From: Candidatus Cryptobacteroides sp.
Lineage (GTDB): Bacteria; Bacteroidota; Bacteroidia; Bacteroidales; UBA932
NCBI GenBank assembly: GCA_051869955.1
Contig: JBJEBJ010000010.1
Span: forward strand, 10,334-74,333
Length of the DNA stretch: 64,000 nt
Direction of reading: 5' to 3'
Shown here: piece by piece, positions 3,388 through 62,929 of the stretch
How positions within the stretch are numbered: the first letter of the stretch is position 1
Layout: every line of letters starts with the position of its first letter
The notes under the pieces: generated by a model
What the model was told of the DNA's origin: nothing
The model's input: only the letters and a program-made list of their open reading frames with translations
The model's database searches: none
Program-made: the position numbers and the translations under genes

Positions 3388-3450
3388 ATTTCATTTCCGG
3401 CCTACGTGTTCGGGGGCAGAAAAAGGTCAATATAGTAAAACAGCGGTTTA

Positions 3451-4422: not shown

Positions 4423-4583
4423 GGAAGCTGAAAATAATAACCTGCTTCAGATTCGACTTGGATTTTCGAGGTCAGATTTTCTGTCGAAGAGGGAGCGTAG
4501 CCGTAGCTACGTGACTGATGAGAAAGGAAATATGGACCGAAAAGATTGACGAAGATGATGCTGATTATTATTTGAAGATTCCT
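4422..4583. mobile_element. MITE-like palindromic element (~160 bp) between fecR and susC
   Basis: Terminal inverted repeats AGGAAGCTGAAAATAATAA (4422-4440) and TTATTATTTGAAGATTCCT (4565-4583) match at 16/19. Central hairpin CGTAGC-CGTA-GCTACG (4496-4511); non-coding. Confidence 0.6.
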
Positions 4584-4622
4584 AACTAAGGTATTTAAAC
4601 CGTAAGATTAATAACCGACACA

Positions 4623-7937: not shown

Positions 7938-7950
7938 CAGAATCCGAATT

Positions 7951-9639: not shown

Positions 9640-9651
9640 AACACATTGACA

Positions 9652-10602
9652 ATGAGAAAGATATATAAATATATACTCATCCTCTCCGCAGTCTTCGGAA
9701 CCTGTGCCTGCGAGTCGGACAACGACAATCCGCGGGCGACCGGGGCATTCGATGTCTCCATCACGAGCTTCAATGTTCTCGGAGTGGATTCAAAGGCGGA
9801 ATGGGCTCCGAGAGTCGGGGCAATCGGAAAGATAATAAACAAGGATGGACATTGTCCTGACATCCTCTGCCTTCAGGAATGTGCCGACACGGCCAAACAG
9901 TCGGACCTCCGAAGGTTGTTTGCGGACAAATATGACAGCCACGCCATCGGGCTGACTGATGCCTCCCCTGCCCTGATTCTCTGGGACAGGAGCAAGTTCG
10001 CGAGGACAGATGCCGGATACTCGGACATGCTGCTCGGAGACCCTGGCTACGGAATGTCTGACTATACAGGCTCGCGTTATGCCCATTATGTGAGGCTCAT
10101 GGAGAAAAGCACGGGATGCGAATTCCTGGTCTATAATATCCATCTGAAGACCAATTCCACCACGGTTTCATACCAGAAACTGCGCTACGACTGCATAACG
10201 GCACTTTGTCCGGCAGCCATAGACAGGGCTGACAGGCTCGGAGGGATTCCGGTGTTCATAATGGGTGATTTCAACAACTACATCGACACCGAGGAGAGCG
10301 GATACATTTCCGCACCGTCGGCCTGCATTGCCGGAGGATTCACCGAGGCCTCATCCGTGGCCCGGGAGTGTATCAACCTGAATTACAAGACTTCAGGCGT
10401 TGACCTGAACGGAAAGGCCACACCGAGGCCGGACGGCAATTACAGAATCGACTACATCTTCTACCGGTACGGAGGTCCTGTCACAGTGAGCAGATACCAG
10501 ACCGTTATTGATTTCGTCGGCGGCTCCACCGAAGACATCAGCACCCCTGTCGCCTCCGACCATCATCCAGTCAACGCATCATTCCATTTAGAGTATAAAT
10601 AA
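9652..10602 (+). CDS. Endonuclease/exonuclease/phosphatase (EEP) family lipoprotein
   Basis: Lipoprotein signal (..GTCAC) and a complete EEP motif set: SFNV, DILCLQE, NIHL, MGDFN, RIDYIF, SDHHPV. Confidence 0.88.
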   Translation: MRKIYKYILILSAVFGTCACESDNDNPRATGAFDVSITSFNVLGVDSKAEWAPRVGAIGKIINKDGHCPDILCLQECADTAKQSDLRRLFADKYDSHAIGLTDASPALILWDRSKFARTDAGYSDMLLGDPGYGMSDYTGSRYAHYVRLMEKSTGCEFLVYNIHLKTNSTTVSYQKLRYDCITALCPAAIDRADRLGGIPVFIMGDFNNYIDTEESGYISAPSACIAGGFTEASSVARECINLNYKTSGVDLNGKATPRPDGNYRIDYIFYRYGGPVTVSRYQTVIDFVGGSTEDISTPVASDHHPVNASFHLEYK

Positions 10603-10605
10603 CTT

Positions 10606-12690: not shown

Positions 12691-12715
12691 TTATATTTCG
12701 TAAAAATTGTCATTG

Positions 12716-22504: not shown

Positions 22505-22678
22505 AAGTTTCGCAAGCCGCAAATTGCTGCTTTTCAGAGGATTTATTGCTCTGTACGAGCAAAAGGCCCACGCGCATTTTTTGTATACGCTACCCTTTTC
22601 CTAAGTCCCTTTCCCCGGGAAAGGGACTTACCCTCGGCCTGAAGGCCTCTAAAGCAGTTGTTTCGCTCTGCGAAACTT
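22505..22678. mobile_element. MITE-like element, copy 1 (174 bp), 11 nt upstream of the gyrA start
   Basis: Terminal inverted repeats AAGTTTCGCA / TGCGAAACTT and an internal hairpin AAGTCCCTTTCC-CC-GGGAAAGGGACTT. A homologous copy lies at 47680-47906. Confidence 0.72.
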
Positions 22679-29798: not shown

Positions 29799-30746
29799 AT
29801 GAAACTTATCGGAACTGGAAGCGCGATTCCATCAAAAGTCGTGACAAACGCCATGCTGTCGGAATTCCTCGACACCGGGGACGAATGGATAATTCCCCGC
29901 ACCGGAATTGAAAGCAGGCACGTAATCACAAACGAGACAGTGGAGGATCTTGGAGCCGACGCCTGCCGCAGAGCATTGGATATGGCCGGACTCAGGCCGG
30001 AGGAGATAGACTTCTTCATCTGTTCCAATGTCGTAAACGAATATATCACCCCGAGCCTGAGCTGCATAATCGCCGAAAAGATCGGTCTCACCTGCCCGTG
30101 CATCGACATCAACTGCGCATGTCCGGGCTTCATTTATGCAATGGAGATTGCAGAGACGCATTTCCTCGCCGGAAAAGTCAGGAACGTGCTCATAGTCAGC
30201 GCAGAAGAGCCTACCAGAATGACGGACTGGACTGATCGGTCCACGTGTGTACTGTTCGGGGATGGAGCCGGAGCAGCCGTGTTCACGAAGGGTGACAACC
30301 TGAAAGGGATCAGGCTGAATGCCAGGCCGGACTCCACCAAAATCTGGCAGAAACGCACACTAATGCCTACCCCGTACATCACCAAGGAGGAGTCCGACGT
30401 ACCTCTCCAGATGAGGGGCAAGGAGGTGTTCAAGTTCGCCGTGGGGGCATCCACGACCGAGGTCGAAGCCCTGCTCGAAGAAGTCGGCCTCACCAAGTCG
30501 GACGTCAGCTACTATATGGTGCACCAGGCCAACCTGCGCATCATCGACGCTATAAAAAAGTACCTCGACGAGCCGGATTCCAAGTTCCCGGTGAACATCA
30601 GGGATCACGGCAATTCGTCTTCCGCATCCTGCGCCATCCTGCTTGACGAGTGCAACAGGGCAGGTCTCTTCAAGAGCGGTGACATATTGGTATTCAGCGC
30701 GTTCGGGGCCGGGCTCCTGTCCGCAGCAGCAGTCCTCGAATGGTAG
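29799..30746 (+). CDS. fabH: 3-oxoacyl-ACP synthase III
   Basis: WIIPRTGIESR, catalytic Cys in INCACPGF, DRSTCVLFGDGAGA, HQANLRII, HGNSSSAS and FGAGL. Confidence 0.92.
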   Translation: MKLIGTGSAIPSKVVTNAMLSEFLDTGDEWIIPRTGIESRHVITNETVEDLGADACRRALDMAGLRPEEIDFFICSNVVNEYITPSLSCIIAEKIGLTCPCIDINCACPGFIYAMEIAETHFLAGKVRNVLIVSAEEPTRMTDWTDRSTCVLFGDGAGAAVFTKGDNLKGIRLNARPDSTKIWQKRTLMPTPYITKEESDVPLQMRGKEVFKFAVGASTTEVEALLEEVGLTKSDVSYYMVHQANLRIIDAIKKYLDEPDSKFPVNIRDHGNSSSASCAILLDECNRAGLFKSGDILVFSAFGAGLLSAAAVLEW

Positions 30747-30794
30747 AATAAATAATTTTTGTAACTTTGCAGATTGTAATAAAACCTATATCTT

Positions 30795-31742
30795 ATGATC
30801 AAAAGTGTAATTTGTGATATCCTTGGGATAAAATATCCTTTGTTCCAGGGAGGAATGGCCTGGATAGCCGATGCAAAGCTTGCCGCTGCCGTGTCAAACG
30901 CCGGTGGACTGGGCCTTATCTCATCAATCAACTTCGGCACTGAAGCCGTAAGAGCAGAAATCCGCAAATGCAGGGAACTTACAGACAAACCTTTCGGAGT
31001 CAACATCATGCTTGCCGCACCAAACGCGGCCGAGATAGCCGACATGGTCATCGAGGAAGGCGTGAAGATTCTCACCACCGGAGCAGGCTCCCCTTCCGCC
31101 TACATGGAGAAATGGAAGGCAGCCGGCATCAAGGTGATTCCTGTAGTGGCATCCGTGGCATACGCCCTCAAGATGCAGGAACTCGGCGCCACTGCAGTAG
31201 TTGCTGAAGGTGCTGAATCAGGCGGACATGTAGGTGACAACCACACGATGGCTCTCGTGCCCCAGATCATTGACGCCCTCGATATCCCTGTACTCGCTGC
31301 CGGCGGAATTTTCGACGGAAGAGGAGCAGCTGCCGCATTCATGTTCGGTGCCGTGGGAGTCCAGGTCGGAACCAGATTCCTCGTGGCTGACGAATGCTGC
31401 GTACATCCTAATTACAAGGAAAAGCTCATCAAGGCTTCCGACGTCAGCACAATGGTCACCGGAAAATCATTCGGAGATGCAGTGCGCTGCCTCAAGAACC
31501 CGTTCGCGAAGAAATTCTTCAAGATGGAATACGACCCGGCAGTGTCCAAGGAGGAAGTGCTGGAGTTCGGCAAGGGTTCTCTCCGCAAAGCCGTATTCGA
31601 CGGTGACAACAGCATGGGAAGCTTCCTTGCCGGTGAAGTGGCCGGAATGGTCACCAAAACCGAGCCTGCCGAGGCAATTGTGAAAGACATAATGGAAGGA
31701 GCCGAGAAACTCCTGAGAAATGCACCTGCGCTTCTCGCCTGA
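30795..31742 (+). CDS. fabK: Enoyl-ACP reductase II (nitronate monooxygenase family)
   Basis: YPLFQGGMAWIA, AVSNAGGLG, KPFGVNIML, EGAESGGHVG, AAGGIFDGRG and QVGTRFL, within a fab cluster. Confidence 0.85.
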   Translation: MIKSVICDILGIKYPLFQGGMAWIADAKLAAAVSNAGGLGLISSINFGTEAVRAEIRKCRELTDKPFGVNIMLAAPNAAEIADMVIEEGVKILTTGAGSPSAYMEKWKAAGIKVIPVVASVAYALKMQELGATAVVAEGAESGGHVGDNHTMALVPQIIDALDIPVLAAGGIFDGRGAAAAFMFGAVGVQVGTRFLVADECCVHPNYKEKLIKASDVSTMVTGKSFGDAVRCLKNPFAKKFFKMEYDPAVSKEEVLEFGKGSLRKAVFDGDNSMGSFLAGEVAGMVTKTEPAEAIVKDIMEGAEKLLRNAPALLA

Positions 31743-31776
31743 GTTTCCGGCACCTATAATTTAATCTGAAAAAATA

Positions 31777-33036
31777 ATGGCAAAAAGAGTAGTAGTAACA
31801 GGAATGGGTATCATCTCCCCAATCGGAAATGATATCGAGACATACTGGAATAGCCTTGTGAACGGTGTATGCGGTATCGATTTTATCGACACTTTCCCTA
31901 CCGACAAGCTTCCGGTGAAAATCGCAGGCAAAGTGAAAAACTTCAAGCCTGAGGAGTACGGCATCGACAAGCCTTTCAGCAGGAAACAGGATTTGTTCAC
32001 CCAGTACGGAGTCGCAGCTGCCTGGCAAGCAATGCAGCAGTCCGGGCTGAAGACTGAAGGCGAAGACCAGAATATCGACCCGTTCAGGCTCGGTGTCTAT
32101 GTTGGCTCCGGCATCGGTGGTTTCGAGATTCAGTACAGGGAGACCGCCAAGATGATAGAGGACCCTTCAGGACAGTGGGTATCGCCGCTCTTCATCCCTA
32201 CCATGATTTCCAACATCGCAGCCGGACATATCGCCATCAGGCATCATGCGAACGGCCCGACCATTGACGTGGTGACCGCCTGCGCGACATCCACGAACAA
32301 TATCGGGGAGGCTTTCAGGGCCATCAAGCACGGATATGCCGACGCTATCATCGCCGGAGGATGCGAGAATGCGACAATTCCTCTCGGAATCGCAGGCTTC
32401 GCCAATGCAAAGGCACTCTCGCGCGCCGAGGATCCAAAATACGCTTCGCTTCCGTTCAATGCGAACAGGGGCGGTTTCGTGATGGGAGACGGTGCAGGCA
32501 TCATTGTCCTTGAGGAATATGAGCATGCAAAGGCCCGCGGGGCGAAGATTTTCGCCGAAATGGTCGGCTACGGCAATACCTGCGATGCATATCATTCGAC
32601 AGCGCCGAGGCCGGACGGAACGACTCAGGCCAAGTGTATCGAGCTCGCTCTCGAGGAGGCAGGATTCGACAAGGAGAAGGACAATCTCTATATCAACGCC
32701 CACGGAACGGGAACCAAGCTGAATGATGCAGCCGAGACCCTGGCTTACAAGATTGCCCTCGGGGACTTCGCATACAAGGCCCACATCAACTCCATCAAGT
32801 CGATGACAGGCCACATGCTTGGTGCCGCCGGTGCTGCCGAGGCTATTGCGACCATCCTTGCCCTGAAGAACGGCATCGTTCCTCCGACCATCAACCTCGA
32901 CACTCCTGATCCTGAGTGCGATCTGGACTACACGCCGAACAAGGCCGTGAAGTCCGACATCAATATCGGAATCTCGGATTCTCTCGGCTTCGGCGGACAC
33001 GATGCATGCGTGGCCTTCAGGAAATACGAAGAATAA
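31777..33036 (+). CDS. fabF: 3-oxoacyl-ACP synthase II
   Basis: RVVVTGMG, GSGIGG, TACATS (Cys), INAHGTGT (His), KSMTGHMLGAAG (His) and GFGGHD. Confidence 0.95.
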   Translation: MAKRVVVTGMGIISPIGNDIETYWNSLVNGVCGIDFIDTFPTDKLPVKIAGKVKNFKPEEYGIDKPFSRKQDLFTQYGVAAAWQAMQQSGLKTEGEDQNIDPFRLGVYVGSGIGGFEIQYRETAKMIEDPSGQWVSPLFIPTMISNIAAGHIAIRHHANGPTIDVVTACATSTNNIGEAFRAIKHGYADAIIAGGCENATIPLGIAGFANAKALSRAEDPKYASLPFNANRGGFVMGDGAGIIVLEEYEHAKARGAKIFAEMVGYGNTCDAYHSTAPRPDGTTQAKCIELALEEAGFDKEKDNLYINAHGTGTKLNDAAETLAYKIALGDFAYKAHINSIKSMTGHMLGAAGAAEAIATILALKNGIVPPTINLDTPDPECDLDYTPNKAVKSDINIGISDSLGFGGHDACVAFRKYEE

Positions 33037-33064
33037 TGACTGACTGTACTAAAACCTGTATAAG

Positions 33065-33484
33065 ATGAACAAAGAAGAAATCAAACAGTTTCTGCCTCAC
33101 AGGGAGCCTATGCTCCTCGTCGACGAGGCCGAGATTGACGAAAACGGACTTGCGCATTGCAAGTACACGATCAAGGAAGACGAATTCTTCACCCGGGGAC
33201 ATTTCCCTGGAAACCCTATCGTTCCTGGCGTAATCCAGTGCGAGATCATGGCCCAGAGCTGCGCCATCATGGTCAAGGAGGACATCCCGGGCCATCTCAC
33301 CCTTTATGCCGGAATCGACAAGGTCCGCTTCAAGAATCCGGTTAAGCCGGGTGATGTCTGCGAGATTACCGCCAGGCTCATAGAGAAGCGCGGCTCCCTC
33401 TATTTCTGCGCCGCAAAGCTCGAAGTGGGCGGCAAGCTCTGCTGCAAAGGTGAACTCACCTTCGCCCTCATCCCGAAAGAGTAA
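33065..33484 (+). CDS. fabZ: 3-hydroxyacyl-ACP dehydratase (stand-alone)
   Basis: LPHREPMLLVD, GHFPGNPIVPGVIQCEIMAQ (His/Glu dyad) and RFKNPVKPGD. Confidence 0.9.
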   Translation: MNKEEIKQFLPHREPMLLVDEAEIDENGLAHCKYTIKEDEFFTRGHFPGNPIVPGVIQCEIMAQSCAIMVKEDIPGHLTLYAGIDKVRFKNPVKPGDVCEITARLIEKRGSLYFCAAKLEVGGKLCCKGELTFALIPKE

Positions 33485-45437: not shown

Positions 45438-45485
45438 TGCTTATCGTTTTTAATACTAATCTTGCAAATATAATAATTATTGACG

Positions 45486-46745
45486 TCAATGACAAATCAT
45501 GTTTCCCCACGCCTTTCCATGTCCTGCGAGCCGACTGTAAACGAACAACATTTCCTCCCTTATCCTTCTCACGTCATGCCTGCTTGAGGCCCCGGCAACA
45601 CCTCTCCCGGAGATTTCCGCAGCCTTTTTCCGGTCATCGAGCAGACTCATTATCTTCCCGGCGAAATCCCCGGCATCCCCTGCTGCAGCCAGCAGACCGG
45701 TAACGCCGTCCTCTACTATGGAAGGCACTCCCCCGACGGCAGAAGCCACCACCGGAACTCCTATCATCTGAGCCTCACATACACTGTTCGGGCTATTGTC
45801 CACATAGGAAGGATGCACATACACGGATGCCGTCACAAGCTCGGTTGCAATATCCCCTGCACCACCGACTCCGGCAGCGACCACTCCGCAATCCGCAGCC
45901 CTGACACCTGTAAACTTCTCATAGAAAGGCAGATCCACATTGCCGAAGACCTTCCACTCGAAATCTGCCCCGTAACGTTCATGCAGGAGGGAGGCAGTTC
46001 TGAGAACAAGATCCATACCCTTGTACGGCGCCTCTGAAATCGTGGAAACTATCTTGATTTTCGCAGAAGGATTCCATGTCCCGGCCTTTTCATAGAACTG
46101 AGGCCTGAGAACCTCGTCCACCTTGAAATAGACAGCATCGCCATTGCGGGATTCTATTTCCTGCCTGTCCCATGCAGTACGTCCGATGAACCAATGAATA
46201 GTCCTGAGCACCTCCGCCTCGTCGGCAGCCCGTCTCTTCATGTTCAGCCAATGGTAATACTTCCCGAAGAAACCCTTTAAAGAACCGCCTGACATACAAT
46301 ATCTGAAGAGACTCATGCGCGGAGGAAGGAAACCCTTCACGCAGGCTTCAAGAATACCCTGGACATGAAGCACCACAGGCACGTCAGCAAGTCCGGCGAT
46401 CAGTCCGTATGGATGCTCCGAGCCGAAAACCTCGATAACGTCCGGCCGGAAGTCCCTGATAATCCTAAGGAAAGAACTCAGGATCCATGAGCGTTGTTCG
46501 GCATTGCCGGAAATCATTCTCCTGACTCTGGAAGCCCGGCCGGAATCGTACGGGTCATGAATCGGATAATATCGTACCCCGTCCTTGACAACCGGACCGT
46601 CCGCATCGTTCATCACGAATGCCACGGCAAGCGTAACTGCGGAGGACATCTGCCGCTCCAACGAGGAAATCCAGCCGCAGCCGTTGTATGCTCCGGAGCT
46701 TGAAACGAATCCGGAAGGTGATCTGGTAAGCCACAGGACTCTCAT
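45486..46745 (-). CDS. Glycosyltransferase family 4 (GT-B)
   Basis: MRVLW, FRPDVI..FGSE, YKG.DL, VHPSYVDNSPNSVCEAQMIGVPVVAS.VGG and GVTGLL. Confidence 0.88.
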   Translation of the reverse strand: MRVLWLTRSPSGFVSSSGAYNGCGWISSLERQMSSAVTLAVAFVMNDADGPVVKDGVRYYPIHDPYDSGRASRVRRMISGNAEQRSWILSSFLRIIRDFRPDVIEVFGSEHPYGLIAGLADVPVVLHVQGILEACVKGFLPPRMSLFRYCMSGGSLKGFFGKYYHWLNMKRRAADEAEVLRTIHWFIGRTAWDRQEIESRNGDAVYFKVDEVLRPQFYEKAGTWNPSAKIKIVSTISEAPYKGMDLVLRTASLLHERYGADFEWKVFGNVDLPFYEKFTGVRAADCGVVAAGVGGAGDIATELVTASVYVHPSYVDNSPNSVCEAQMIGVPVVASAVGGVPSIVEDGVTGLLAAAGDAGDFAGKIMSLLDDRKKAAEISGRGVAGASSRHDVRRIREEMLFVYSRLAGHGKAWGNMICH

Positions 46746-46755
46746 AGGACATTCG

Positions 46756-47667
46756 TCATTGGTTAGGGAACTTGTCCCTGAACCCGTTGTCTATCTCACT
46801 GCGTATCTCAGTGATTGTCATGCGCCTGGTGAAATCCATGAAGAAACTGCCATGATTGGAAATACGCTCGAACTTGGCCGGCATCTGCATATAGTCCCCA
46901 TAGATACGTCTCAGGATCTCATCATTTCCGGAAGGAACAGGCACCATAATGTTCTCGAAAGGAATGAGGATCCTGCCGCTTATCCATTCTGCCGGGAACG
47001 AGACCTTTTCAGCCGGGGAGAATGCGGAATAAGTTATCCTCCAGCCTCCTTTGCCGGAAGCCAGCGCCCTGTCCATGCTACAGAAACGGGCCTTGAGCAA
47101 CTTGCGCCTCGGCCTGTACCAGAGAAGGTCGAGCAATGCTCCGGAGCAATAGTGGAAATTGCCTTCAAGCAACGACTCTCCCCAAGCCCTGAATGTATGG
47201 CGCCGGAAACTCCTCCTGTATTTCTTGAATGCCGAATGATATTCATCCTTGAATCGCTGGGCGGCGGAAATGTTCCCGTCAAAAGAGTCCAAAGGGAAAA
47301 TATCTATGAAGACACCATAGATTGAAGGATAGCGTTCCTGCTCCCAGATGGTGGAGTTCATGTCGCAGAACTTGGTAATCGGGAAAGGCATGTCTTCGTC
47401 ACCCACACGCGGGCCACACAGGTCATACTCTCCCTCAAGAACATCTCCGGTTATCTCCCGGACACGTCCCTTCATTGCCAGCAGCCTCTCATAATCGGCT
47501 CTCGGCATATATACGTCAATATCGTCGTCCCAGGGAATCAGGCCCTTGTGCCTGACGGCACCGATAGAAGCCCCGAAAGCCAGATACCAGTCGAGTCCCG
47601 CAGCATCGCAGAACTTCATGAAATCACGCATTGTACGGAGCAAAATCTCCTTGTGTCTGTCGTCCAT
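46756..47667 (-). CDS. licD: LicD-family phosphotransferase (CDP-X transferase)
   Basis: GASIGAVRHKGLIPWDDDIDVYMPRADY, GVFIDIFPLD, FE...PVP..D.IL..IYGDYMQMP. Start taken at MDDRHK; the ORF-track extension lies within a MITE. Confidence 0.9.
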   Translation of the reverse strand: MDDRHKEILLRTMRDFMKFCDAAGLDWYLAFGASIGAVRHKGLIPWDDDIDVYMPRADYERLLAMKGRVREITGDVLEGEYDLCGPRVGDEDMPFPITKFCDMNSTIWEQERYPSIYGVFIDIFPLDSFDGNISAAQRFKDEYHSAFKKYRRSFRRHTFRAWGESLLEGNFHYCSGALLDLLWYRPRRKLLKARFCSMDRALASGKGGWRITYSAFSPAEKVSFPAEWISGRILIPFENIMVPVPSGNDEILRRIYGDYMQMPAKFERISNHGSFFMDFTRRMTITEIRSEIDNGFRDKFPNQ

Positions 47668-47679
47668 AAGAATAAGATT

Positions 47680-47906
47680 AAGTTTCGCAAGCCGCAAATT
47701 GAGTCCTTTCAATAGGGATTGTCGCTCAATGCGAACAAAGGCCCACGCGCATAATATACGCTACACTTTTCCTAAATCCCTACCGTCCCTCCGGGCTGCT
47801 CGCTGCAAAAGGCCACTGGACTTTTGCTTATCGCTCCCGACCCCGGGAAAGGGACTTACCATCGGCCTGAAGGCCTCAAAAGCAGTTGTTTCGCTCTGCG
47901 AAACTT
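47680..47906. mobile_element. MITE-like element, copy 2 (227 bp), with a nested 59-bp hairpin insert
   Basis: Same inverted repeats AAGTTTCGCA/TGCGAAACTT and shared blocks (AAAGGCCCACGCGCAT; GGGAAAGGGACTTACC; TCGGCCTGAAGGCCTC; AAAGCAGTTGTTTCGCTCTGCG) as 22505-22678. The extra segment 47782-47840 contains GCAAAAG..CTTTTGC. Confidence 0.72.
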
Positions 47907-48028
47907 GAGTAAATGTGTTATAACTTACAAATTTACACATTATTTCAACATTTTCCGGCATTTTTAGGAAATAATATTTGATTTGAATTTGAAAACGTTT
48001 AAATTAGCTGCATAAAAATACAATAAAA

Positions 48029-49321
48029 ATGCCTGGAATTTCCCGAAGAGGCGCATCACTTCCGGCTTCCCCTATCAGGAAGCTCGCGCCATACGCAGAA
48101 AGTGCGAAACAAAGAGGAGTCAAAGTCTATCATCTGAACATCGGCCAGCCGGACCTGCCGACTCCCGAAAAAGCCCTTGACGCCATCAGGGCACTGGACC
48201 GCAGGACATTGGAATACAGTCCGAGCAACGGTATCAGAAGCCTGAGGGATAAATTGACCGGTTATTACAGCCGGTTCGGAATCAATCTTTCCCAGGACGA
48301 GATCATTGTCACTTCGGGCGGTTCCGAAGCGCTTCTCGCAACATTCCTGACCTGCTTCGACCCGGGGGACGAGGTCATAATCACCGAACCGGGCTACGCG
48401 AACTACCTGAGTTTCGCCAAGGCGGCAGGCCTCGTGGTGAAAGCCGTGACCTCAAGGATTGAGGACGGATTCGCCCTCCCGTCCGCCGCTGATTTCGAGA
48501 AAGCCATCACAGACAAGACGAAGGCCATTCTCATCTGCAACCCGAACAATCCTACGGGACATCTGTATTCCCCGGAGGAACTGTTCCAGATCAGGGATCT
48601 CGTTCGCGACCACGACCTGTTCCTGATTTCCGACGAAGTCTATCGTGAATTCGTGTACAACGGCGAGCCTTACGTTTCCGCTCTCACCCTCTTCGGAATC
48701 GAAGAAAACGTGATTGTAGTGGATTCCGTGTCCAAGCGTTATTCTGAATGCGGGATACGCGTGGGTATGGTAGTTACAAGGAACAAGGAAATCCTGGAAG
48801 GAATAATGCATTTCTGCCAGTCAAGGCTCAGCCCGCCTCTCCTCGGGCAGATTGCCGCGGAGGCATCCATAGAAGGTACCGAGCTCTATTCCGAGGAATG
48901 CTTCAATGAATACAAGGCCAGACGGGATTTCTTCATCGAAGGCCTCAACAAGATACCGGGGGTTTACTCCCCTCTTCCTGAAGGAGCCTTCTACACTGTG
49001 GCAAGCCTGCCTGTCAAGAACGCGGAGGATTTCTGCAGATGGTGCCTGACGGATTTCTGCTGGAAGGAAAATGAGGACGAACCGGCAGATAATGGAGGGA
49101 TACATTTCGGAGGTCTCATCCCCGGTCCCGGGAAGCAGGAGCCTGAATTCATCGGGGAAACCGTGATGATGGCCCCTGCTGCAGGATTCTATGCCAACAA
49201 GGAGTTGGGAGCCAACCAGGTGAGAATGGCGTACGTTCTCAAGAAAGAGGATCTGGCACGAGCCCTGAAAGTGCTTGAAAAAGCCCTTGAGGCCTACAGC
49301 AAGGTCGAGTCCGGAGAATAA
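48029..49321 (+). CDS. Pyridoxal-phosphate class I aminotransferase (aspartate aminotransferase-like)
   Basis: SPIRKL, LNIGQPD, TSGGSEA, CNPNNPTG, ISDEVY and DSVSKRYSECGIRVG. Confidence 0.9.
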   Translation: MPGISRRGASLPASPIRKLAPYAESAKQRGVKVYHLNIGQPDLPTPEKALDAIRALDRRTLEYSPSNGIRSLRDKLTGYYSRFGINLSQDEIIVTSGGSEALLATFLTCFDPGDEVIITEPGYANYLSFAKAAGLVVKAVTSRIEDGFALPSAADFEKAITDKTKAILICNPNNPTGHLYSPEELFQIRDLVRDHDLFLISDEVYREFVYNGEPYVSALTLFGIEENVIVVDSVSKRYSECGIRVGMVVTRNKEILEGIMHFCQSRLSPPLLGQIAAEASIEGTELYSEECFNEYKARRDFFIEGLNKIPGVYSPLPEGAFYTVASLPVKNAEDFCRWCLTDFCWKENEDEPADNGGIHFGGLIPGPGKQEPEFIGETVMMAPAAGFYANKELGANQVRMAYVLKKEDLARALKVLEKALEAYSKVESGE

Positions 49322-49328
49322 CGGAATG

Positions 49329-50351
49329 TCATATTGAAGGATACAAATATTTCCTCATGCGAAGTACGGCGGCAGCAATGTCCGCCGTTTTTGCATTGAA
49401 CCATTTCCCGGCGGCGGAAGAAGGAAGTGCCAGGAAAGACGAGTCGAATTCCTTGTCAGGGAAATTGGTCCTGATGTCTTCTACCGCGCGGGTGGAATAA
49501 TTCCCGAGCAGGGCCTTCCTGATGAATCCCGGGATGCGGCTGCGTGACAGGAGATGGCGTCGGAGCGGGAATCCGGCCTCGATGAATGCGCATCTCGTGC
49601 TGAATTTCAGGGACTCGTTCTCCGACCACCTGTACACGAAGAGGGTCTTGTCGTAATTGTAATAATTCAGGCCGGAAAGCCCTGCGCGGACAATGAAATA
49701 CAGGTCCGTGGACGGTCCCGAAATATAGTCAAAACCGCCGGACCGGGCTATGGCAGAACGTCTTATGGCCATTCCTGTAGGTATGAATGTCCTGCAGAAC
49801 GGCTCCCATGACGTAAGCGGTTTCCAAAGCCTTGCCGGCCTGCTGCCATCCTTCGGCAATTCCAAAGGAGTACCGTCGCGCCATTTGAACGACCGCGGGC
49901 AGACTATGTCAGCATCGGGCCGGGCGTCCATGACCCGCAGAATCTCACGGACATAGGACGGCAGAAGGAAATCGTCATCGTGAAGGATGACGGTGATGTC
50001 TCCTCTTCCGACGGTCAGGGCGCGGTTGAAATTGCCGACGAGACCCAGGTTCGAGGTATTCTTGAGATATCTCAGGCGCGGGTCATCCAGGCCTTCAAGA
50101 TAATCCCCGATTTCGGTATCAGGCTCGGGATTGTCCTCGACCACAACGACCTCAAACGGCAGGACGGTATCCTGTGAGAAGGCCGAGGACAGGGCATGCT
50201 TTAGCATTGAGACCCGCTTGTAAGCCGGTATCACTATGGACACGGCAGGGACAGGACCGTCAGTGCTGCCCTTCATAAGAACAGACTCCACATCCGCCTG
50301 GACATACAGGTTGTCATTAGCCTTCAGGCACTCTTCCGCATTGATTTCCAT
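49329..50351 (-). CDS. Glycosyltransferase family 2
   Basis: VSIVIPAYKR, EVVVVEDN, NLGLVGNFNR, ILHDDD (DxD) and DLYF...YR. Confidence 0.88.
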   Translation of the reverse strand: MEINAEECLKANDNLYVQADVESVLMKGSTDGPVPAVSIVIPAYKRVSMLKHALSSAFSQDTVLPFEVVVVEDNPEPDTEIGDYLEGLDDPRLRYLKNTSNLGLVGNFNRALTVGRGDITVILHDDDFLLPSYVREILRVMDARPDADIVCPRSFKWRDGTPLELPKDGSRPARLWKPLTSWEPFCRTFIPTGMAIRRSAIARSGGFDYISGPSTDLYFIVRAGLSGLNYYNYDKTLFVYRWSENESLKFSTRCAFIEAGFPLRRHLLSRSRIPGFIRKALLGNYSTRAVEDIRTNFPDKEFDSSFLALPSSAAGKWFNAKTADIAAAVLRMRKYLYPSI

Positions 50352-51748
50352 ACACTTGAAATTTTATTGCCCAACACCGAGAATCCGTCGGAATAAAAGC
50401 CCGGGACTGTCATATCAAGTTCCCTGAACACCCACAGAGGCCACCGCCAGTTGTTGTACGCAGCCTGGACAATGCCCTGCACGAGCACCACGCCAAACAG
50501 CCCTGCAGCAGTGTATTTCAGCACTATGAATGTCAGGAGAACTATCATCCCTCCGGATATAAGGCTCGGCACGACATACGGAATACGGTTCGAGGTGGAT
50601 ATCACCGAAGCGAACTCCGAGTGGTTGAGTTCCAGGGCAATCACAAGCAGATACAGGGCGCATATCCCGAATGACGGAAGTTCTGTGGAGGAATGTATAA
50701 GTTTAAGGAAAGGAGGCACCGCGAAAAGAATTGCAATGGCTCCCGCGAGCATCACAATCTGCCCGGTCACCACCGTAAACGAGATTGTCCTGCGGAGTTC
50801 TTCCTTCCTGCCTGTCACCCTCAGATTGGAGAGTTTGGGAAGGAATGTGACAAACAATGTATTGGCCACTCCGGACACGATGGTGGAGAGCTGGGTCAGC
50901 AGTCCGTAGGAACCGATCACTGCGAGAGGCAGGAAGAAACCGATGATGAACATCCCCATCTTGTTCACCGCGTAAGCCCCGAGGAAATTGATTCCCAACT
51001 TCTTGGCATTGAACCAGATGACTTTGAATGTGGAATTTATCTCGTCCTTTGAGACTTCCCCGCCAAGACGCGATTTCAGTTCCGGAGTGAAATACACCCT
51101 GTAGCAGAACAGGCGCTGGACGAACGGGGCGATGAAATTGGCGGCAACCACCGCGAACAGGCCCCAGTCCAAAAGCAGGAAAATGACGCATAGCAGCATA
51201 TAGGCGGACTTCGACAGGATGGCTGCCTGGGATGCCTCCTTCACCATTCCGCTGCCGGTCAGAAGGCTGGAATAGTAGGAGAAATATATGTTGAAATACG
51301 TCGAGAACGAGTACAATATCCAGATATACAGAGAGTTCTGCACATTGGTAAACCCTTCTGTCAGATACCATATATAGGCCGTCCCGAAAGTCAGCATCAC
51401 CGCGAGGGCAATCAGCGAAAGCCTGGTATAGACATATCGGGCCGTCTTGATAAGCACCGAGAGCAGATGCCAGTCCATCTCTCCCCCTGTCTCTTCCATG
51501 ACTCCTTCCTTCAGGAGGGAACGTGCCCCGCTGTTGACATATGTGAAATTGCGTCCGAACTGGGGCGAGAATCCGAAGTCCAGGAGCCCGACTATGGAGC
51601 CGACCGTGAGCATCAGGTAGTTCATGCCCACCTCCTCGCTCGTCAACATATTGAGAATCAGCGGCAGAGTCACGAGTCCCGACCCTATCAGGAAGAACTT
51701 CGCGACATAGCTCCAGATGACATCCTTACGTGTTATATCGACTCCCAT
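50324..51748 (-). CDS. Wzx-like O-unit flippase
   Basis: About 12 TM segments, LPLIL..L..EEVG, LLDFGFSPQFGRN and IGSYGL; within a glycan operon. Start taken at MGVDITRKD. Confidence 0.8.
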   Translation of the reverse strand: MGVDITRKDVIWSYVAKFFLIGSGLVTLPLILNMLTSEEVGMNYLMLTVGSIVGLLDFGFSPQFGRNFTYVNSGARSLLKEGVMEETGGEMDWHLLSVLIKTARYVYTRLSLIALAVMLTFGTAYIWYLTEGFTNVQNSLYIWILYSFSTYFNIYFSYYSSLLTGSGMVKEASQAAILSKSAYMLLCVIFLLLDWGLFAVVAANFIAPFVQRLFCYRVYFTPELKSRLGGEVSKDEINSTFKVIWFNAKKLGINFLGAYAVNKMGMFIIGFFLPLAVIGSYGLLTQLSTIVSGVANTLFVTFLPKLSNLRVTGRKEELRRTISFTVVTGQIVMLAGAIAILFAVPPFLKLIHSSTELPSFGICALYLLVIALELNHSEFASVISTSNRIPYVVPSLISGGMIVLLTFIVLKYTAAGLFGVVLVQGIVQAAYNNWRWPLWVFRELDMTVPGFYSDGFSVLGNKISSVWKSMRKSA

Positions 51749-51749
51749 A

Positions 51750-52760
51750 TCATCTCCTCCCCCGGCATTTTTCCATGCCCCATGCGTAAACCTTGTCGAT
51801 TTCCGGGCAGCTGACCCCGTTCTCGTGTGCGAGGTCATGTATCATTTTCAGCCCGTATGGAAAATCTTCCGTGAAATACCGGCTTCCGAAATCCGGAATC
51901 CATCCCCCTTCCACGCGCACCATTGGCGACTCTATGTCCCTGAACGAAGGGATGCTGCTTATCTTCGCCGTCATTCCTTCAGCGTCAGAAGCTTCGTAAT
52001 GTTCAAGCAGGGTGTCGATGTGCTCCGTGCTCACGCCCAATGCCGAGAGCAGTTTGAAGAACTCCCTGTCCATCCGGATTTCGAGTTCGGATGCCTCGAC
52101 AGTCCATTCCCTGTAGAAGAATCCACGTCCCGGAAAAGGTTTACCGTCCCAGTCCTTCCACATAGTATAGAGCCGGCCGGTATGCAGGATGGGATTGCTG
52201 TTGCTCAGGGTAACCTCATAGAAACTTCCGGCGAACACAACCTTCTCCCCGAAAAGCCTGCCGAGGACATCCGCAAACGCCTGCTTGTCAGATATATTCT
52301 CGGCTGCGACAATGATCTCCTCCCTGTCCCCGAGAAGCCTTGCGCTCTTTCCGTATTCAGTCACCCGGGACACGTACGGGACGCGCTGGAGGCCGAATAC
52401 AGGCACTCCCTCCATATGGTTGTGGCAATGGAAGAAGAATCCGGAATTGGAGACCACGGTCCCGACGATGGTATTCTGCCCGAGATGCGGCTTAATCCTG
52501 TCCAATGTCTCCCCGACAAGAAATGCCGGAAGGCAGAGCAGGACAATATCGGACCGGGGTATCAGCACTGCAGGATCGGCCGACACTTCCGCAAGCCTTC
52601 CCCTCAGGACGTTTCCGTCCGGTCTCGTGACCTCGAACTCACGGTTCCATCTCTCCGGATGCGAGCATAACATATTGACGGACACGTCCTCCAATCTGGA
52701 GAACATCCCCGCGCAGGTATGTCCGAGGCCTCCGCCTCCGCAGATTGTAACGGTCAGCAT
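51750..52760 (-). CDS. NAD/NADP opine (octopine/nopaline) dehydrogenase family protein
   Basis: Rossmann motif ICGGGGLGH, DIVLLCLPAF, NSNPILH, FY.EW and the C-terminal signature SRYFTEDFPYGL. Confidence 0.85.
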   Translation of the reverse strand: MLTVTICGGGGLGHTCAGMFSRLEDVSVNMLCSHPERWNREFEVTRPDGNVLRGRLAEVSADPAVLIPRSDIVLLCLPAFLVGETLDRIKPHLGQNTIVGTVVSNSGFFFHCHNHMEGVPVFGLQRVPYVSRVTEYGKSARLLGDREEIIVAAENISDKQAFADVLGRLFGEKVVFAGSFYEVTLSNSNPILHTGRLYTMWKDWDGKPFPGRGFFYREWTVEASELEIRMDREFFKLLSALGVSTEHIDTLLEHYEASDAEGMTAKISSIPSFRDIESPMVRVEGGWIPDFGSRYFTEDFPYGLKMIHDLAHENGVSCPEIDKVYAWGMEKCRGRR

Positions 52761-54580
52761 TTTCTCTCCTCTTCCAACTGTCTGAACGCGGCGAGGAGAC
52801 GGTCATTGTCCTCCCTGCTCCTTACCGCTATGCGCATATATTGTCCTCCGTCGAGACCTGCCTTGGCCGAACAGTCCCTCGTGAGGATATCGAATCTCTT
52901 GAGCATCGTAAGCACAAGCCCCCCGGCCGTGTACGGCGGTAATATCCTGCAAAGGAAATAATTGGCCTGCGAAGGCATCACGTGCAGGAACGGTATTCCG
53001 GACAATTCCTTTCCGAAACGGTCTCTCTCTTCAGCGAATCTCGTACATGCCCTGTGATAGTCCTTCTCGTACTTGGTGAATATCTGCATGAAGAACTCGG
53101 CAAAGGAATTTATATTCCAGATGCTCAACGACTTGCGAATGTCCGACATCAGCTCCATGTCAGCAGAGCAGAGGATTCCGAGCCTGATTCCCGGCACTCC
53201 GTAGCTCTTGGAAATGCTCTTGAGCACCACCAACTGAGGATATTTTTCCAGAATCCCGTCGTGAAGCAGTGTATTGTGGACATATCCGTCGCTGAAATCC
53301 ACGAAACTCTCGTCCACTATCAACCTTGTCCCGCTTTCCCCGCACCATTCCGCGAGGGAAAGAAGGTCTGCCACAGGAATGAAATTGCCGGACGGATTGT
53401 CAGGATTGATTACCAGAATGTTGTCCGCAGGGTTCCTTCCGAAGAATTCTTTCAGGTCACCGGCCGTATATCTGTAGTCCGGTTTTTCCGGAATGAATGT
53501 CACAAGGTCTTCAGGAGACCGCCGGTTCGGATATTCCTCGAATGTGGGACGGACTATTCCCAATGTTCCCGGCAATATGCCCATGAGTTCCTTTATGAGT
53601 TCGGCGGCACCATTCCCCGGCACAATGTAATCTTCCTTCACACCCCAGCATTTGGAGGCAAGCAAGGTATTGACTTTCAGTCCGGAAGGATATTCCGACA
53701 CGAGCGTACCGAAATTGGCCTTCATCTCCTCGACAATGCGGGACTCCCCGAAATACGGATTCACCAGGTAACAGAAATCCAGCATCTTCGGAAATCTCCA
53801 GAATCCTCCGAAACGGCCGTAATATTTCCTGATGATGTCTTTCTCCTCCGCGAAGAGGGCCTCGGCGATGTCCAGGTCCTGCTTGTCGTCGATTTCGTAC
53901 CATTTCGCATTGGTCACAGGCAGTGCCTTGAGGTCGCTGCTGTTCAGGAAGCTGATGATTCTCAGTACGTTCTCATAGTATTCGTTGTTCCCGACGGCCT
54001 TGGTATAGGCTTCGAGGAACGGAACGTACTTGCGGGCGGAGAATTCCTTGCTGAACTTGTAGATATTGACCGTCTTGTAATATTTTCCCGCATTGGAATA
54101 GTCGAAAGCATCCTTCGGGACGAAGTTCACGATATTGCAATCTGAGTCAATCCTGACCATGGTCCCGTCCATCCAGGTCTCGTATTTGGAGACTAATGCA
54201 AGATTCGGGAAAGGATTGTCAATCAACATGTTGAGCAGGACCTCATCGAAAATGAGGTCGGACTCGACAAGTATGGTGTCATCCTGCTGGAGATAGTCCT
54301 TCGCCAACCATAAGGAATAGATGTTGTTCGTCCGGCTATATACCGGATTTTCTACGAACTCGATATCCAGGTCCGTGTGCAGTTCCCCTATGTGCCTGAT
54401 GAGTTTGTCGCCCTCGTAACCGACGACTATCACCACCCGGTCCAGTTTCAGAGCGGAAAGCTGGCCGAGAAGCCTGTCAATGAGGGGCACACCGTTCACA
54501 GGGACCATACATTTCGTATTGTCCTTCGTATATTCCCCAAGCCTGCGGCCCATTCCCGCCGCGAGGATTATTGCCTGCAT
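52754..54580 (-). CDS. Fusion of a LicC-like cytidylyltransferase and a CobD/HisC-like PLP enzyme
   Basis: N-domain AIILAAGMGRRL...KCM, NP.Y..TNNIYSL, ESDLIF, WYEIDD.QDL. C-domain GNGAAELI, PTFEEY, NPDNPSG, IVDESF, KSISKSYGVPGIRLG, NYFL, MRIAV. Confidence 0.88.
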   Translation of the reverse strand: MQAIILAAGMGRRLGEYTKDNTKCMVPVNGVPLIDRLLGQLSALKLDRVVIVVGYEGDKLIRHIGELHTDLDIEFVENPVYSRTNNIYSLWLAKDYLQQDDTILVESDLIFDEVLLNMLIDNPFPNLALVSKYETWMDGTMVRIDSDCNIVNFVPKDAFDYSNAGKYYKTVNIYKFSKEFSARKYVPFLEAYTKAVGNNEYYENVLRIISFLNSSDLKALPVTNAKWYEIDDKQDLDIAEALFAEEKDIIRKYYGRFGGFWRFPKMLDFCYLVNPYFGESRIVEEMKANFGTLVSEYPSGLKVNTLLASKCWGVKEDYIVPGNGAAELIKELMGILPGTLGIVRPTFEEYPNRRSPEDLVTFIPEKPDYRYTAGDLKEFFGRNPADNILVINPDNPSGNFIPVADLLSLAEWCGESGTRLIVDESFVDFSDGYVHNTLLHDGILEKYPQLVVLKSISKSYGVPGIRLGILCSADMELMSDIRKSLSIWNINSFAEFFMQIFTKYEKDYHRACTRFAEERDRFGKELSGIPFLHVMPSQANYFLCRILPPYTAGGLVLTMLKRFDILTRDCSAKAGLDGGQYMRIAVRSREDNDRLLAAFRQLEEERKC

Positions 54581-54612: not shown

Positions 54613-54670
54613 GAGCCGGAGGCTCCCGTCGGCTGATACGCCTGACAAGTCCCTCCGGCTCACAAATATA
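54613..54670 (-). promoter_or_regulatory. -7 promoter element followed by a GC-rich hairpin upstream of the glycan-modification operon
   Basis: TATATTTG (54670-54663), then a 10-bp stem GAGCCGGAGG/CCTCCGGCTC (54613-22 / 54652-61) with no U-tract. Confidence 0.45.
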
Positions 54671-60945: not shown

Positions 60946-61833
60946 TTATTTCCCGAATCTTTTGAGGATATCCCCGTACGCGTCGATTCTCCTGTCACGG
61001 AGGAAAGGCCATCCGCGGCGGACATACTCGGTCCTGTCAAGGTCAATCTCCACGACCTTGTTCTCCTCTCTGTCTGTGCTGAACTGTGCCAGAATCTCGC
61101 CCTGTGGGCCTGTAGCGAATGAATATCCCCAGAAATCGAGCCCGATGGTATTGCCGGAAGGATCATCCTCATGTCCGACACGGTTCACTGTAATGACTGG
61201 AAGCCCGTTGGCCACTGAATGTCCCCTCTGGACCAGCTGCCAGGCCTGGCGCTGGGTCTGCTGCTCATCTTTCGAATCGGTCCCGACGCCTCCGATTGCA
61301 GTAGGATAAATCAGGAGCTCAGCCCCGTTGAGGGCCATGAGCCTCGCTGCCTCCGGATACCACTGATCCCAGCAGACAAGCACTCCAAGGTCACCCACCG
61401 AAGTATGGACAGGCCTGAATCCGAGGTCACCCGGGGTGAAATAGAATTTCTCATAGAAGCAAGGATCATCAGGAATGTGCATCTTGCGGTATTTGCCGGC
61501 AATGGAGCCGTCCTTTTCAATTACGACTGCGGTATTGTGATACAGACCGGGAGCGCGTCTCTCGAAGAGAGAGAGAACGAGAACGATGCCGAGTTCGCGT
61601 GCAAGAGCGCCGAACCTCTCTGTGGACGGGCCCGGGATGGTCTCGGCCAGGTCACATATCGAGGCTTCCTCGGTCTGGCAGAAATATACGCTATTGTGCA
61701 GTTCCTGGAGCACGACGAGCTGGGCGCCTTCCGAAGCGCACTGCCTGATATTCGCCTCAAGCTTGCTGATGTTGGCAGCTATGTCCGTTCCGCAGGATTG
61801 CTGCACCATTCCGACTTTGAGTATTCTTGACAT
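60946..61833 (-). CDS. aguB: N-carbamoylputrescine amidase (carbon-nitrogen hydrolase)
   Basis: Nitrilase triad LQELH / YRKMHIPDDP..YEKFYF / VCWDQWYPE, YPTAIG and FLRDRR; downstream of aguA. Confidence 0.88.
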   Translation of the reverse strand: MSRILKVGMVQQSCGTDIAANISKLEANIRQCASEGAQLVVLQELHNSVYFCQTEEASICDLAETIPGPSTERFGALARELGIVLVLSLFERRAPGLYHNTAVVIEKDGSIAGKYRKMHIPDDPCFYEKFYFTPGDLGFRPVHTSVGDLGVLVCWDQWYPEAARLMALNGAELLIYPTAIGGVGTDSKDEQQTQRQAWQLVQRGHSVANGLPVITVNRVGHEDDPSGNTIGLDFWGYSFATGPQGEILAQFSTDREENKVVEIDLDRTEYVRRGWPFLRDRRIDAYGDILKRFGK

Positions 61834-61873
61834 ATTCAGTTTGAATTTATTACAATATTCAGCCCCTCTCCTG

Positions 61874-62929
61874 TCATTTCCCCTGCGCCGGCCTCAGCCA
61901 GCCTTCCGGAAACTGCATCGTGACGCAGTGGAGAGAGCCGTGACCGGAGAGCAGGGGCCTGCAGTCAATCACCTTGATCTCCCTGTCGGGAAATGCCTCC
62001 TGCAATCTTTCCGCAGCAATGTCATCGAGCGGTGAACCGGATCCCGGAACGAGTACTGCGCCGTTGATTATCAAGAAATTGGCATAGGAAGCAGGAAGTC
62101 TGTATCCATCTAACCAGAGAGGCTCCGGCAGAGGGAGAGGAATCAGACGGTAAGGTTTCCCGTCTTCAGTCCGGAATTCCCTGAGCTGGGCCTCCATTGC
62201 GTGCAGTCCTGCATAGTTTTCGTCCGACTCATCGGTACATTGTGTATATGCTATCGTGTCAGGAGAGCAGAAACGGGCCATGATGTCCACGTGGCTGTCC
62301 GTATCGTCCCCGGCGATTCCCCCGTGCTCGAGCCAGAGGACCCGTTTCAGGCCGAAAGCCTGCCTGAGTTCCCCTTCAATCTCCTCGCGGGAGAGATATT
62401 CATTGCGGTTCACCGAGCAGAGACATTCTGCAGTGGTCAGGAGGGTTCCCTGCCCGTCGGAATCAATGCTGCCGCCTTCAAGCACGAACGGCCTCATGTC
62501 CACGCACATGACATCCTCCTCGAACATTCCGGAGAAGAAGACCTTGCGCGTCATCTGGTTGTCCAGATCGGAAGCGAACTTCAGGCCCCAGCCGTTGAAC
62601 ACGAAATCATAGAGATATTTCTCCCCGGCATCACCGTGGACAGAGATTCCGCCATGGTCCCGTGCCCAGGTGTCGTTGATCGGGCATTCGCAGAAGGCAA
62701 TGGCATCGATATCAATGTCAAGAGACAGTGATTCAGACAGTTCCGCAAGACGCTCGCGCGCATCTTCCACGGATGAAGTGACTATCATCAGAGCCTCATG
62801 TCCGAGGACAGCGGCGGCGATTTTCGCATAACATTCCTGGACTTTCTCCAGTTCGTACCAAGGAGTGGTCGCGTCCGGCCACGTGAGCTGGACTCCACTC
62901 TGTTTCTCCCATTCTGCAGGCAGTCTCAT
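61874..62929 (-). CDS. aguA: Agmatine deiminase (PAD_porph family)
   Basis: RLPAEWE, WP, NDTWARD.G, FNGWG, LEGGSID.DG.GT, DDTDSHVD, ASYANFL and GSLHCVTMQ. Confidence 0.9.
   Translation of the reverse strand: MRLPAEWEKQSGVQLTWPDATTPWYELEKVQECYAKIAAAVLGHEALMIVTSSVEDARERLAELSESLSLDIDIDAIAFCECPINDTWARDHGGISVHGDAGEKYLYDFVFNGWGLKFASDLDNQMTRKVFFSGMFEEDVMCVDMRPFVLEGGSIDSDGQGTLLTTAECLCSVNRNEYLSREEIEGELRQAFGLKRVLWLEHGGIAGDDTDSHVDIMARFCSPDTIAYTQCTDESDENYAGLHAMEAQLREFRTEDGKPYRLIPLPLPEPLWLDGYRLPASYANFLIINGAVLVPGSGSPLDDIAAERLQEAFPDREIKVIDCRPLLSGHGSLHCVTMQFPEGWLRPAQGK

Follow-up and report, generated by a model that had tools for sequence, protein, structure and literature searches.

What would an opine dehydrogenase do in a surface-glycan locus? 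The question is raised by a 64,000-nucleotide stretch of DNA from Candidatus Cryptobacteroides sp. (assembly GCA_051869955.1, contig JBJEBJ010000010.1, positions 10,334 to 74,333; hereafter the window), in which a minus-strand gene for a 608-aa fusion of a cytidylyltransferase and a pyridoxal phosphate (PLP) enzyme (52754..54580) overlaps by 7 nt the gene of a 336-aa opine dehydrogenase (ODH; 51750..52760). A Wzx-like O-unit flippase (50324..51748; NF041503 WZX_like, 449 bits, cut-off 300) begins 1 nt after the ODH gene and is overlapped by 28 nt by a GT2 glycosyltransferase gene (49329..50351; PF00535, expect value (E) 6.5e-21), completing a four-gene minus-strand run whose members overlap or abut. 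Further along the same strand lie a LicD phosphotransferase (46756..47712; PF04991, 117 bits, likely starting at the ATG at 47667) and, starting 10 nt after licD, a GT4 glycosyltransferase (45486..46745; PF00534/PF13692). The original prediction read these genes as a pathway that decorates a surface glycan with an opine-type phospho-aminoalcohol; the coordinates and the Pfam and NCBIfam matches bear out the genes that it named, and the pathway reading as a whole was supported.

Linkage of the fusion, the opine dehydrogenase and LicD

The original prediction proposed that the three genes should occur together elsewhere, and they proved to be tightly linked. Among 401 genomes of the same order, ODH genes were present in 10 (6 close, including the genome that contains the window, and 4 distant) and the full-length fusion in 11; the close ODH directly followed the fusion in 6/6 cases, all among the 11 fusion genomes. 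The hypergeometric probability of this co-occurrence is ~1e-10, a value that is overstated, kin not being independent. Besides the genome of the window, five genomes carried a close ODH, with LicD nearby in three, TagF in one, and neither within 20 kb in one. Across the loci from species genomes (n=12), seven contained the fusion and LicD, one contained 2-aminoethylphosphonate (AEP) genes and LicD, one LicD only, and three none of these, two of them at contig ends. A sample of the family gave 9/301 genomes, an ODH of 39% identity (G668) there having no partner, and the class of the Akkermansia record gave 3/151, two of which had a licD-fusion-ODH arrangement plus a second licD.

We then drew on metagenomes, where the counts given throughout refer to the best 80 of at least 517 relatives; loci were labelled by blastp against references and by our own LicD profile, with Pfam checks on subsets, and are not independent, the 108 ODH rows collapsing to 87 at 90% identity. 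An amine-supply module was present in 72/80 loci: 58 had the fusion or its PLP domain, 11 had AEP genes and 3 had a LicC/amidohydrolase/kinase set, with 5 of the 8 supply-less loci having <600 bp upstream. LicD was found in 45/80, in 7 of them as a fusion, and a further 2 had TagF but no LicD. Counting only loci flanked by 5 kb or more in each direction, supply was present in 27/28 and a transferase in 24/28. The same partners were also joined covalently, as 57 of the 89 ODH homologues of 589-2000 aa were ODH-LicD proteins, 31 were transferase-PLP-ODH proteins and 1 was of another kind (classes with Pfam checked on subsets). The cassette is a real, conserved module, and a functional link of the fusion, ODH and LicD is well supported. 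Seven ODH loci (L012, L078, L087, L099, L101, L104 and L112) adjoin metG, presumably the site of Bacteroidota protein O-glycosylation genes; others lie near a large membrane protein that is YfhO-like by eye and has no Pfam match.

The LicD of the window, the single LicD gene found in its genome (88.8% complete), pointed the same way. When 78 LicDs were compared, its best match outside its near relatives came from L063, where LicD forms one half of an ODH-LicD fusion (35%, 280 aa, 189 bits; next match 122 bits); this locus also has a GT4 33% identical to that of the window, in keeping with the LicD association that had been predicted. On the LicD tree, 4 or more changes are needed to account for the ODH-LicD fusions. 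Three ODH-LicD proteins of 913-934 aa (P0178, P0179 and P0183) carry an extra C-terminal domain that has no Pfam match and is glycosyltransferase-like by eye. At L032:8322-14989 (G110), the genes flanking a fusion-ODH pair encode an IspD-SDR fusion and two transferases of the TagF type, TagF replacing LicD.

The enzymes and the exchange of amine supply and reductase

The fusion matched PF12804/PF00483 at residues 3-122 and PF00155 at residues 315-598, and its best sequence match in the PDB was 6OUX (SMUL_1544; E 3.8e-40), annotated as a serine-O-phosphate decarboxylase in an NCBI record. Its predicted structure, with a predicted local distance difference test score (pLDDT) of 84.5, matched the folds of 6PD2 (top), 6OUX and 1LC5. 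The cytidylyltransferase domain spans approximately residues 1-245, with LicC and PntC as the nearest solved structures, and its pocket contains the pair E106/E203. In PntC the primary amine is contacted by E104/E196, the LicC equivalents D105/D192 leaving a roomier site, as described in the available part of PMC6697681. The E106/E203 pair, mapped through motifs in pairwise alignments and an inferred 20-residue numbering offset, recurred in 74/75 transferase domains of the surveyed loci, whether these contained ODH, the PF02423 reductase described below or neither. The pocket is thus likely PntC-like and of the primary-amine type, unlike that of LicC. A choline role was rejected on the same Glu pair, in place of the LicC Asp pair, and on the lack of a choline kinase over cut-off in the genome of the window.

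The C-terminal half is a CobD/SMUL_1544-like PLP domain with lysine K458, retaining R466, R568 and R583 as well. Its DESF motif has the Phe of CobD and SMUL_1544, two HisC sequences having Tyr (DEAY), and it contains the N-terminal x-G-G (F/Y/H-GG) motif of CobD; judged by these motifs, the domain is decarboxylase-type, as in CobD and unlike HisC. The residue before the PLP lysine, S457, matches S242 of SMUL_1544 and not T215 of CobD, but HisC also has Ser there, and it was not used. The CobD of the B12 pathway was rejected as an identity, TIGR01140 (CobD) being the top NCBIfam match of the fusion at 173.8 bits against a cut-off of 290.55 and CbiB not being found in the genome of the window; HisC was likewise rejected (TIGR01141 119.5 bits, cut-off 276.55; DESF, not DEAY), a separate HisC-like open reading frame (ORF) being present on another contig (C3).

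Split homologues of the fusion adjoin a CDP-alcohol phosphatidyltransferase in two genomes (G353 and G336), which fits CDP-ethanolamine as the product of the fusion. Such neighbours of a split or fused transferase and PLP enzyme were seen at L147:713-3273, L148:8696-11256 and L040:7980-10458, which may possibly represent a kinase-free CDP-ethanolamine route to phospholipid. A fusion of 47% identity at L039:7023-12866 (a Fusobacterium vincentii record) is accompanied by LicD, a formyltransferase and DUF1015 but lacks a reductase; it may represent an N-formyl variant in which DUF1015 perhaps supplies phosphoserine locally.

The ODH matched PF02317 at 109 bits (cut-off 30), with a Rossmann domain and the two-domain fold of its family, and octopine dehydrogenase (3C7A) at E 4.9e-34; its model (pLDDT 91.5) had TM scores of 0.85 to octopine dehydrogenase (3IQD/3C7A) and 0.78 to CENDH (1BG6). 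With these two it shares the fold, the glycine-rich motif and the His/Arg/Asp triad, which we take to be the catalytic set of octopine dehydrogenase: H193/R294/D299 align with H212/R324/D329 and are invariant in 25/25 rows. It differs in having Q125-R126 in place of E142-T143, E142 being presumably the amino-acid-binding residue, as well as in its glycan context and in the phosphorylated non-amino-acid amine predicted as its substrate. Octopine dehydrogenase proper was rejected on this replacement. Arg at position 126 was present in 131/138 aligned rows and absent from the 404-aa, TupA-linked and siderophore ODHs; the Q-R pair fits an anionic amine substrate.

The wider ODH family comprises 472 clusters at 50% identity (E up to 1e-30). 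As a control, the 404-aa clade (25% identity; G084, G145 and G247) had neither fusion nor LicD nearby. In a glycan locus at L034:9340-11588 (G324), a 424-aa ODH (25% identity, no Q-R) is immediately followed by a gene for a TupA-like ATP-grasp protein; this ODH may serve in making amide-linked opines, of which carboxyethyl-lysine has been described in Providencia. Distant PF02317 genes at L038:3508-11137 and in rhizobial plasmid matches (H25-H59) adjoin cysteine-synthase-like genes, presumably the SbnB position and a second case of ODH and a cyclodeaminase-family protein in one role.

A clue to the amine came from the relatives of the ODH. In a quick maximum-likelihood tree (support by SH-aLRT, an approximate likelihood ratio test, only), the window ODH fell in a 24-row clade with support 100, made up of 10 fusion-linked, 9 AEP-linked and 5 unassigned rows; close ODH orthologues thus appear to act downstream of either the fusion or the Ppm-Ppd-AEPT-PntC genes. 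Ethanolamine phosphate and AEP are one oxygen apart, and the AEP-linked members of the clade indicate a 2-aminoethyl-phosphorus amine.

The reductase can be exchanged as well. Five fusion genomes lack ODH. In three of them the fusion is immediately followed by a PF02423 gene, with LicD no more than two genes away, and the other two have LicD but no reductase. A search with the PF02423 protein gave matches in 5/401 genomes, namely those three, one in which the gene directly follows a PntC-AEPT fusion among Ppm-Ppd genes, and another in which it lies at a contig end before two licD genes; all four combinations of supply (fusion or AEP) and reductase (ODH or PF02423) occur. PF02423 is the ornithine cyclodeaminase/mu-crystallin family, with a fold unrelated to ODH, and the best PDB match of the protein was 4M54, which we take to be SbnB. 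Taurine, the amine of tauropine, is the sulfonate analogue of AEP. Members of PF02423 have evolved tauropine dehydrogenase and succinamopine synthase activity, according to the available part of PMC8087989. That two unrelated folds capable of such chemistry share one slot is our main argument for a reductive step joining amine and 2-oxoacid. A third supply was seen in L103 (7968-14206), L106 and L108, with ODH, a LicC-like protein, an amidohydrolase, a transferase-choline/ethanolamine-kinase fusion and LicD; the ODHs of these three loci form one clade.

Proposed pathway and competing explanations

We propose that SerA and SerC supply phosphoserine, their genes being present in the genome of the window as a serC-serA-DUF1015 run (serC and serA identified by reading translations) and the flux being presumed. 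The fusion would then cytidylylate and decarboxylate phosphoserine to CDP-ethanolamine without kinase, transporter or choline, a step that we infer from the analogy with FrbH, SMUL_1544 and Cj1436. The carbon isostere of phosphoserine is 2-amino-4-phosphonobutyrate. FrbH, of the FR-900098 pathway of Streptomyces rubellomurinus, cytidylylates and then decarboxylates this compound, as stated in the available text of PMC8976061 and PMC6697681. The window enzyme has the described FrbH architecture, a PF12804 cytidylyltransferase joined N-terminally to a PLP decarboxylase-like domain, which suggests by analogy that here, too, cytidylylation probably precedes decarboxylation; the setting differs, glycan genes, a reductase and LicD forming the context and no PF13714 (phosphoenolpyruvate, PEP, mutase) match being found in the genome of the window. 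Using NAD(P)H, ODH would couple a 2-oxoacid to the primary amine, giving CDP-N-(1-carboxyethyl)ethanolamine, from which LicD would move the phospho-opine to the repeat unit of a surface glycan, which may be an O-antigen, a capsule or a protein O-glycan, releasing CMP, for export by Wzx. Where the supply is AEP, the substrate of ODH would be CMP-AEP and its product the phosphonate analogue. With a secondary amine and a carboxylate, the head group would be net anionic, as opposed to neutral ethanolamine phosphate. The product class, whatever the order of steps, can be put forward with fair assurance; given the route, the keto acid is likely to be pyruvate and the configuration R, since the nearest solved enzymes make D-carboxyethyl opines (by PDB titles) and an R-configured carboxyethyl head group is named in Proteus; and the whole route, from phosphoserine through CDP-ethanolamine and its carboxyethyl form to LicD and a Wzx-exported glycan, is what these sequences slightly favour. 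Among the sources that had originally been listed, phosphoserine is favoured by the AEP swap and the decarboxylase motifs, phosphothreonine and dihydroxyacetone phosphate (DHAP) less so.

Several observations weigh against this reading. The licD-GT4 pair is a unit separate from the fusion-ODH operon, since a plus-strand aminotransferase (48029..49321) and a dispersed repeat (47714..47915) intervene after GT2 and a separate TAnnTTTG motif precedes licD at 47935-47928; the original prediction was right about the strand of licD-GT4 but overlooked the aminotransferase. ODH occurs without supply despite >2 kb upstream in L084, L095 and L112 (3/80), and also in L008, L012 and G668, while neither LicD nor TagF was present in 4/28 well-flanked loci and in G119. 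The solved close relatives of the ODH, octopine dehydrogenase and CENDH, use amino acids as the amine, and a Paraburkholderia ODH that is not part of a glycan locus carries the Q-R motif too. The PLP domain is 28% identical to CobD and 28% to SMUL_1544. ODH and the PF02423 gene are both present in five loci, so the two may not be mere substitutes. Finally, the LicDs adjoining ODH are polyphyletic (14 changes for 23 rows on the LicD tree), so that, on this tree, there is no dedicated donor-specific LicD clade.

This polyphyly keeps a different order of steps in play, in which the same product arises by ODH acting on glycan-bound ethanolamine phosphate after LicD, or on free ethanolamine phosphate before cytidylylation. 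LicDs drawn from many clades are expected if LicD passes plain ethanolamine phosphate, and the ODH-LicD fusions are compatible with either order; however, the 31 transferase-PLP-ODH fusions tie ODH to a soluble supply enzyme, and the E106/E203 pocket, which is the same whether or not ODH is present, speaks against a transferase substrate made bulky by N-substitution, as the amine-first version would require. We consider another order unlikely.

The amine could also be another amino alcohol, either aminopropanol phosphate made from phosphothreonine by a CobD-like reaction or serinol phosphate made from DHAP as by Cj1437, then N-carboxyalkylated. Motifs alone do not separate serine from threonine, because the domain is only 28% identical, and thus equally distant, to both decarboxylases; TIGR01140 is the top NCBIfam match at 174 bits, and Cj1437 provides a serinol phosphate precedent in capsule loci. 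Set against this, the AEP with which close ODH orthologues are paired is an unbranched amine of two carbons, the fusion has decarboxylase-type motifs, its split homologues in G353 and G336 adjoin CDP-alcohol phosphatidyltransferases, and no threonine kinase was noticed in the annotated loci, though none was searched for, all of which makes such an amine improbable.

An activated opine might be made for a partner other than the window LicD, or for an acceptor that is a lipid or another polymer encoded elsewhere. A promoter motif of its own does precede the licD-GT4 pair, which a gene on the opposite strand separates from the operon, the genome is incomplete at the level given above, and fusion homologues elsewhere serve lipid-type transferases. 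Yet the genome contains one LicD and no TagF-like gene that we could find, the gene order of the window is kept in L001-L003 (Bacteroidales and Candidatus Cryptobacteroides loci), the nearest outside relative of this LicD is joined to an ODH in a locus with a related GT4, and wzx and GT2 share one operon with ODH; a different partner or acceptor is accordingly quite improbable.

Very improbable, lastly, is an ODH that works oxidatively like SbnB, freeing an amine from an opine, or is a passenger while the glycan receives plain ethanolamine phosphate: distant ODHs adjoin cysteine-synthase-like genes on rhizobial plasmids and lie in a Proteus siderophore cluster, and 2/11 fusion genomes have LicD without a reductase, but the catalytic residues are invariant, repeated fusion to both flanking enzymes would be hard to explain, and an SbnA-like opine synthase was not among the neighbours of ODH in the annotated loci, as far as these neighbours were identified.

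Taking the phosphoserine-to-LicD route as the preferred explanation, we tentatively extend it to a modular and widespread opine head-group system, in which three supplies (phosphoserine fusion, AEP and kinase/LicC) would feed either reductase fold and then LicD or TagF, ODH would synthesise opines from a CMP-activated amine that is not an amino acid, the AEP loci would yield N-(1-carboxyethyl)-2-aminoethylphosphonate, and the same genes would explain the Proteus head group; the chance that all of these parts hold jointly falls a little short of even.

Genomic surroundings, known systems and significance

The intervening aminotransferase (48029..49321, plus strand, 430 aa, PRK07568-type; NF005744, 567 bits) is convergent with GT2, has a paralogue of 46% identity on contig C114 of the same genome, and is not considered part of the proposed pathway. 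The flippase likely starts at 51748, the ORF finder having placed its start at 51838. A motif scan located TAnnTTTG, which we take to be a Bacteroidota promoter element, on the minus strand upstream of the fusion (54663..54670) and of licD-GT4 (47928..47935), with a further copy at 45465..45472; the window holds 32, compared with 19.5 +/- 4.4 in shuffles. A scan of the window for sigma-70 promoters and terminators gave chance-level results. The scanned ORFs of the window included no recognisable polymerase.

Between the licD motif and licD lies the two-arm dispersed repeat (47714..47915), which is not part of the proposed pathway and is possibly a small mobile element. It has 31 pieces in the genome, including 17 copies of one arm, 9/17 of which precede a same-strand ORF by no more than 400 bp, and there is another copy site at ~22613-22677 of the window; within the licD gap it is present in L001 and missing from L002 and L003. 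It has no Rfam match and a fold z of -0.62, and an Rfam RNA at 47.7-48.0 kb was rejected, the high depth of RNA runs there being that of the repeat. In six RNA runs, at small shares, contigs of relatives, mostly 90-99% alike, span the fusion through the aminotransferase and not licD-GT4; we take them to show neither transcription nor its absence and used them in neither sense. Ordinary neighbours include an ECF sigma/FecR/SusC/SusD unit (2836-14557) and a fab gene cluster (29799-33484), and a carbon-nitrogen hydrolase with a deiminase-family gene lies at 60946-62929.

The proposed route shares with the Lic pathway (LicA/B/C/D) the CTP activation of an aminoalkyl phosphate and, as predicted here, LicD transfer to a surface glycan, and differs from it in its predicted de novo amine supply, its Glu pair and its added reductase. 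The absence of PEP mutase and choline kinase that the original prediction had noted held across the genome of the window, with no PF13714 match and a single choline kinase match under the cut-off (21 against 29 bits); the choline transporter LicB was not among the scanned window ORFs, no genome-wide search for it having been made. Pnt tailoring (Ppm, Ppd, AEPT and PntC; Tde1415, PDB 6PD2) resembles the window in its transferase-PLP fusion, Glu pair and LicD neighbours, 6PD2 being the top fold match and close ODH orthologues occurring in such loci, whereas the Pnt AEPT is class V and the window PLP domain class I/II and CobD-like; the words opine and octopine had 0 occurrences in the Pnt papers searched. 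In the available account of the C. jejuni capsule, Cj1436 makes ethanolamine phosphate. Cj1436 and SMUL_1544 are stand-alone proteins, unlike the fused window enzyme, and in the Cj1436 route the amine is amide-linked by a ligase, neither CDP-activated nor N-alkylated.

The predicted product is itself a known structure, N-[(R)-1-carboxyethyl]ethanolamine phosphate (R-Cet-EtnP) being named as a Proteus mirabilis O-polysaccharide substituent in the available part of PMC9630907; there it is a structure, here genes alone. The available part of a Proteus O-antigen study (PMC5560731) had no passage on licD or ethanolamine, and Proteus names were absent from the ODH homologue lists, the cluster look-ups and the distant-homologue search; of two Proteus ODH matches, both 24% identical, the P. 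mirabilis one examined sits in an IucA/C siderophore cluster. A distant blastn search of E. coli with the Fusobacterium fusion gene gave no match, and an E. coli O-antigen review was without an ethanolamine passage. Within a literature search that left outside most subscription journals, home of much Proteus glycan work, we found no gene assignment for R-Cet-EtnP, no opine dehydrogenase placed in a LicD or AEP locus, and no report of N-(1-carboxyethyl)-2-aminoethylphosphonate as a glycan phosphonate. The elements already known are the architecture of the fusion and the logic of CTP activation with LicD transfer; we found no description of an opine step acting on a glycan head group, or of the predicted phosphonate version of it.

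The cassette provides candidate enzymes for a glycan substituent otherwise found only as a structure. If the proposed route is true, it would constitute a kinase-free, choline-independent change of surface charge in Bacteroidales and Verrucomicrobia (6/401, 9/301 and 3/151 genomes in the three samples), would open a new phosphonate branch downstream of AEP, and would extend opine dehydrogenases from metabolites and metallophores to the chemistry of the cell envelope.

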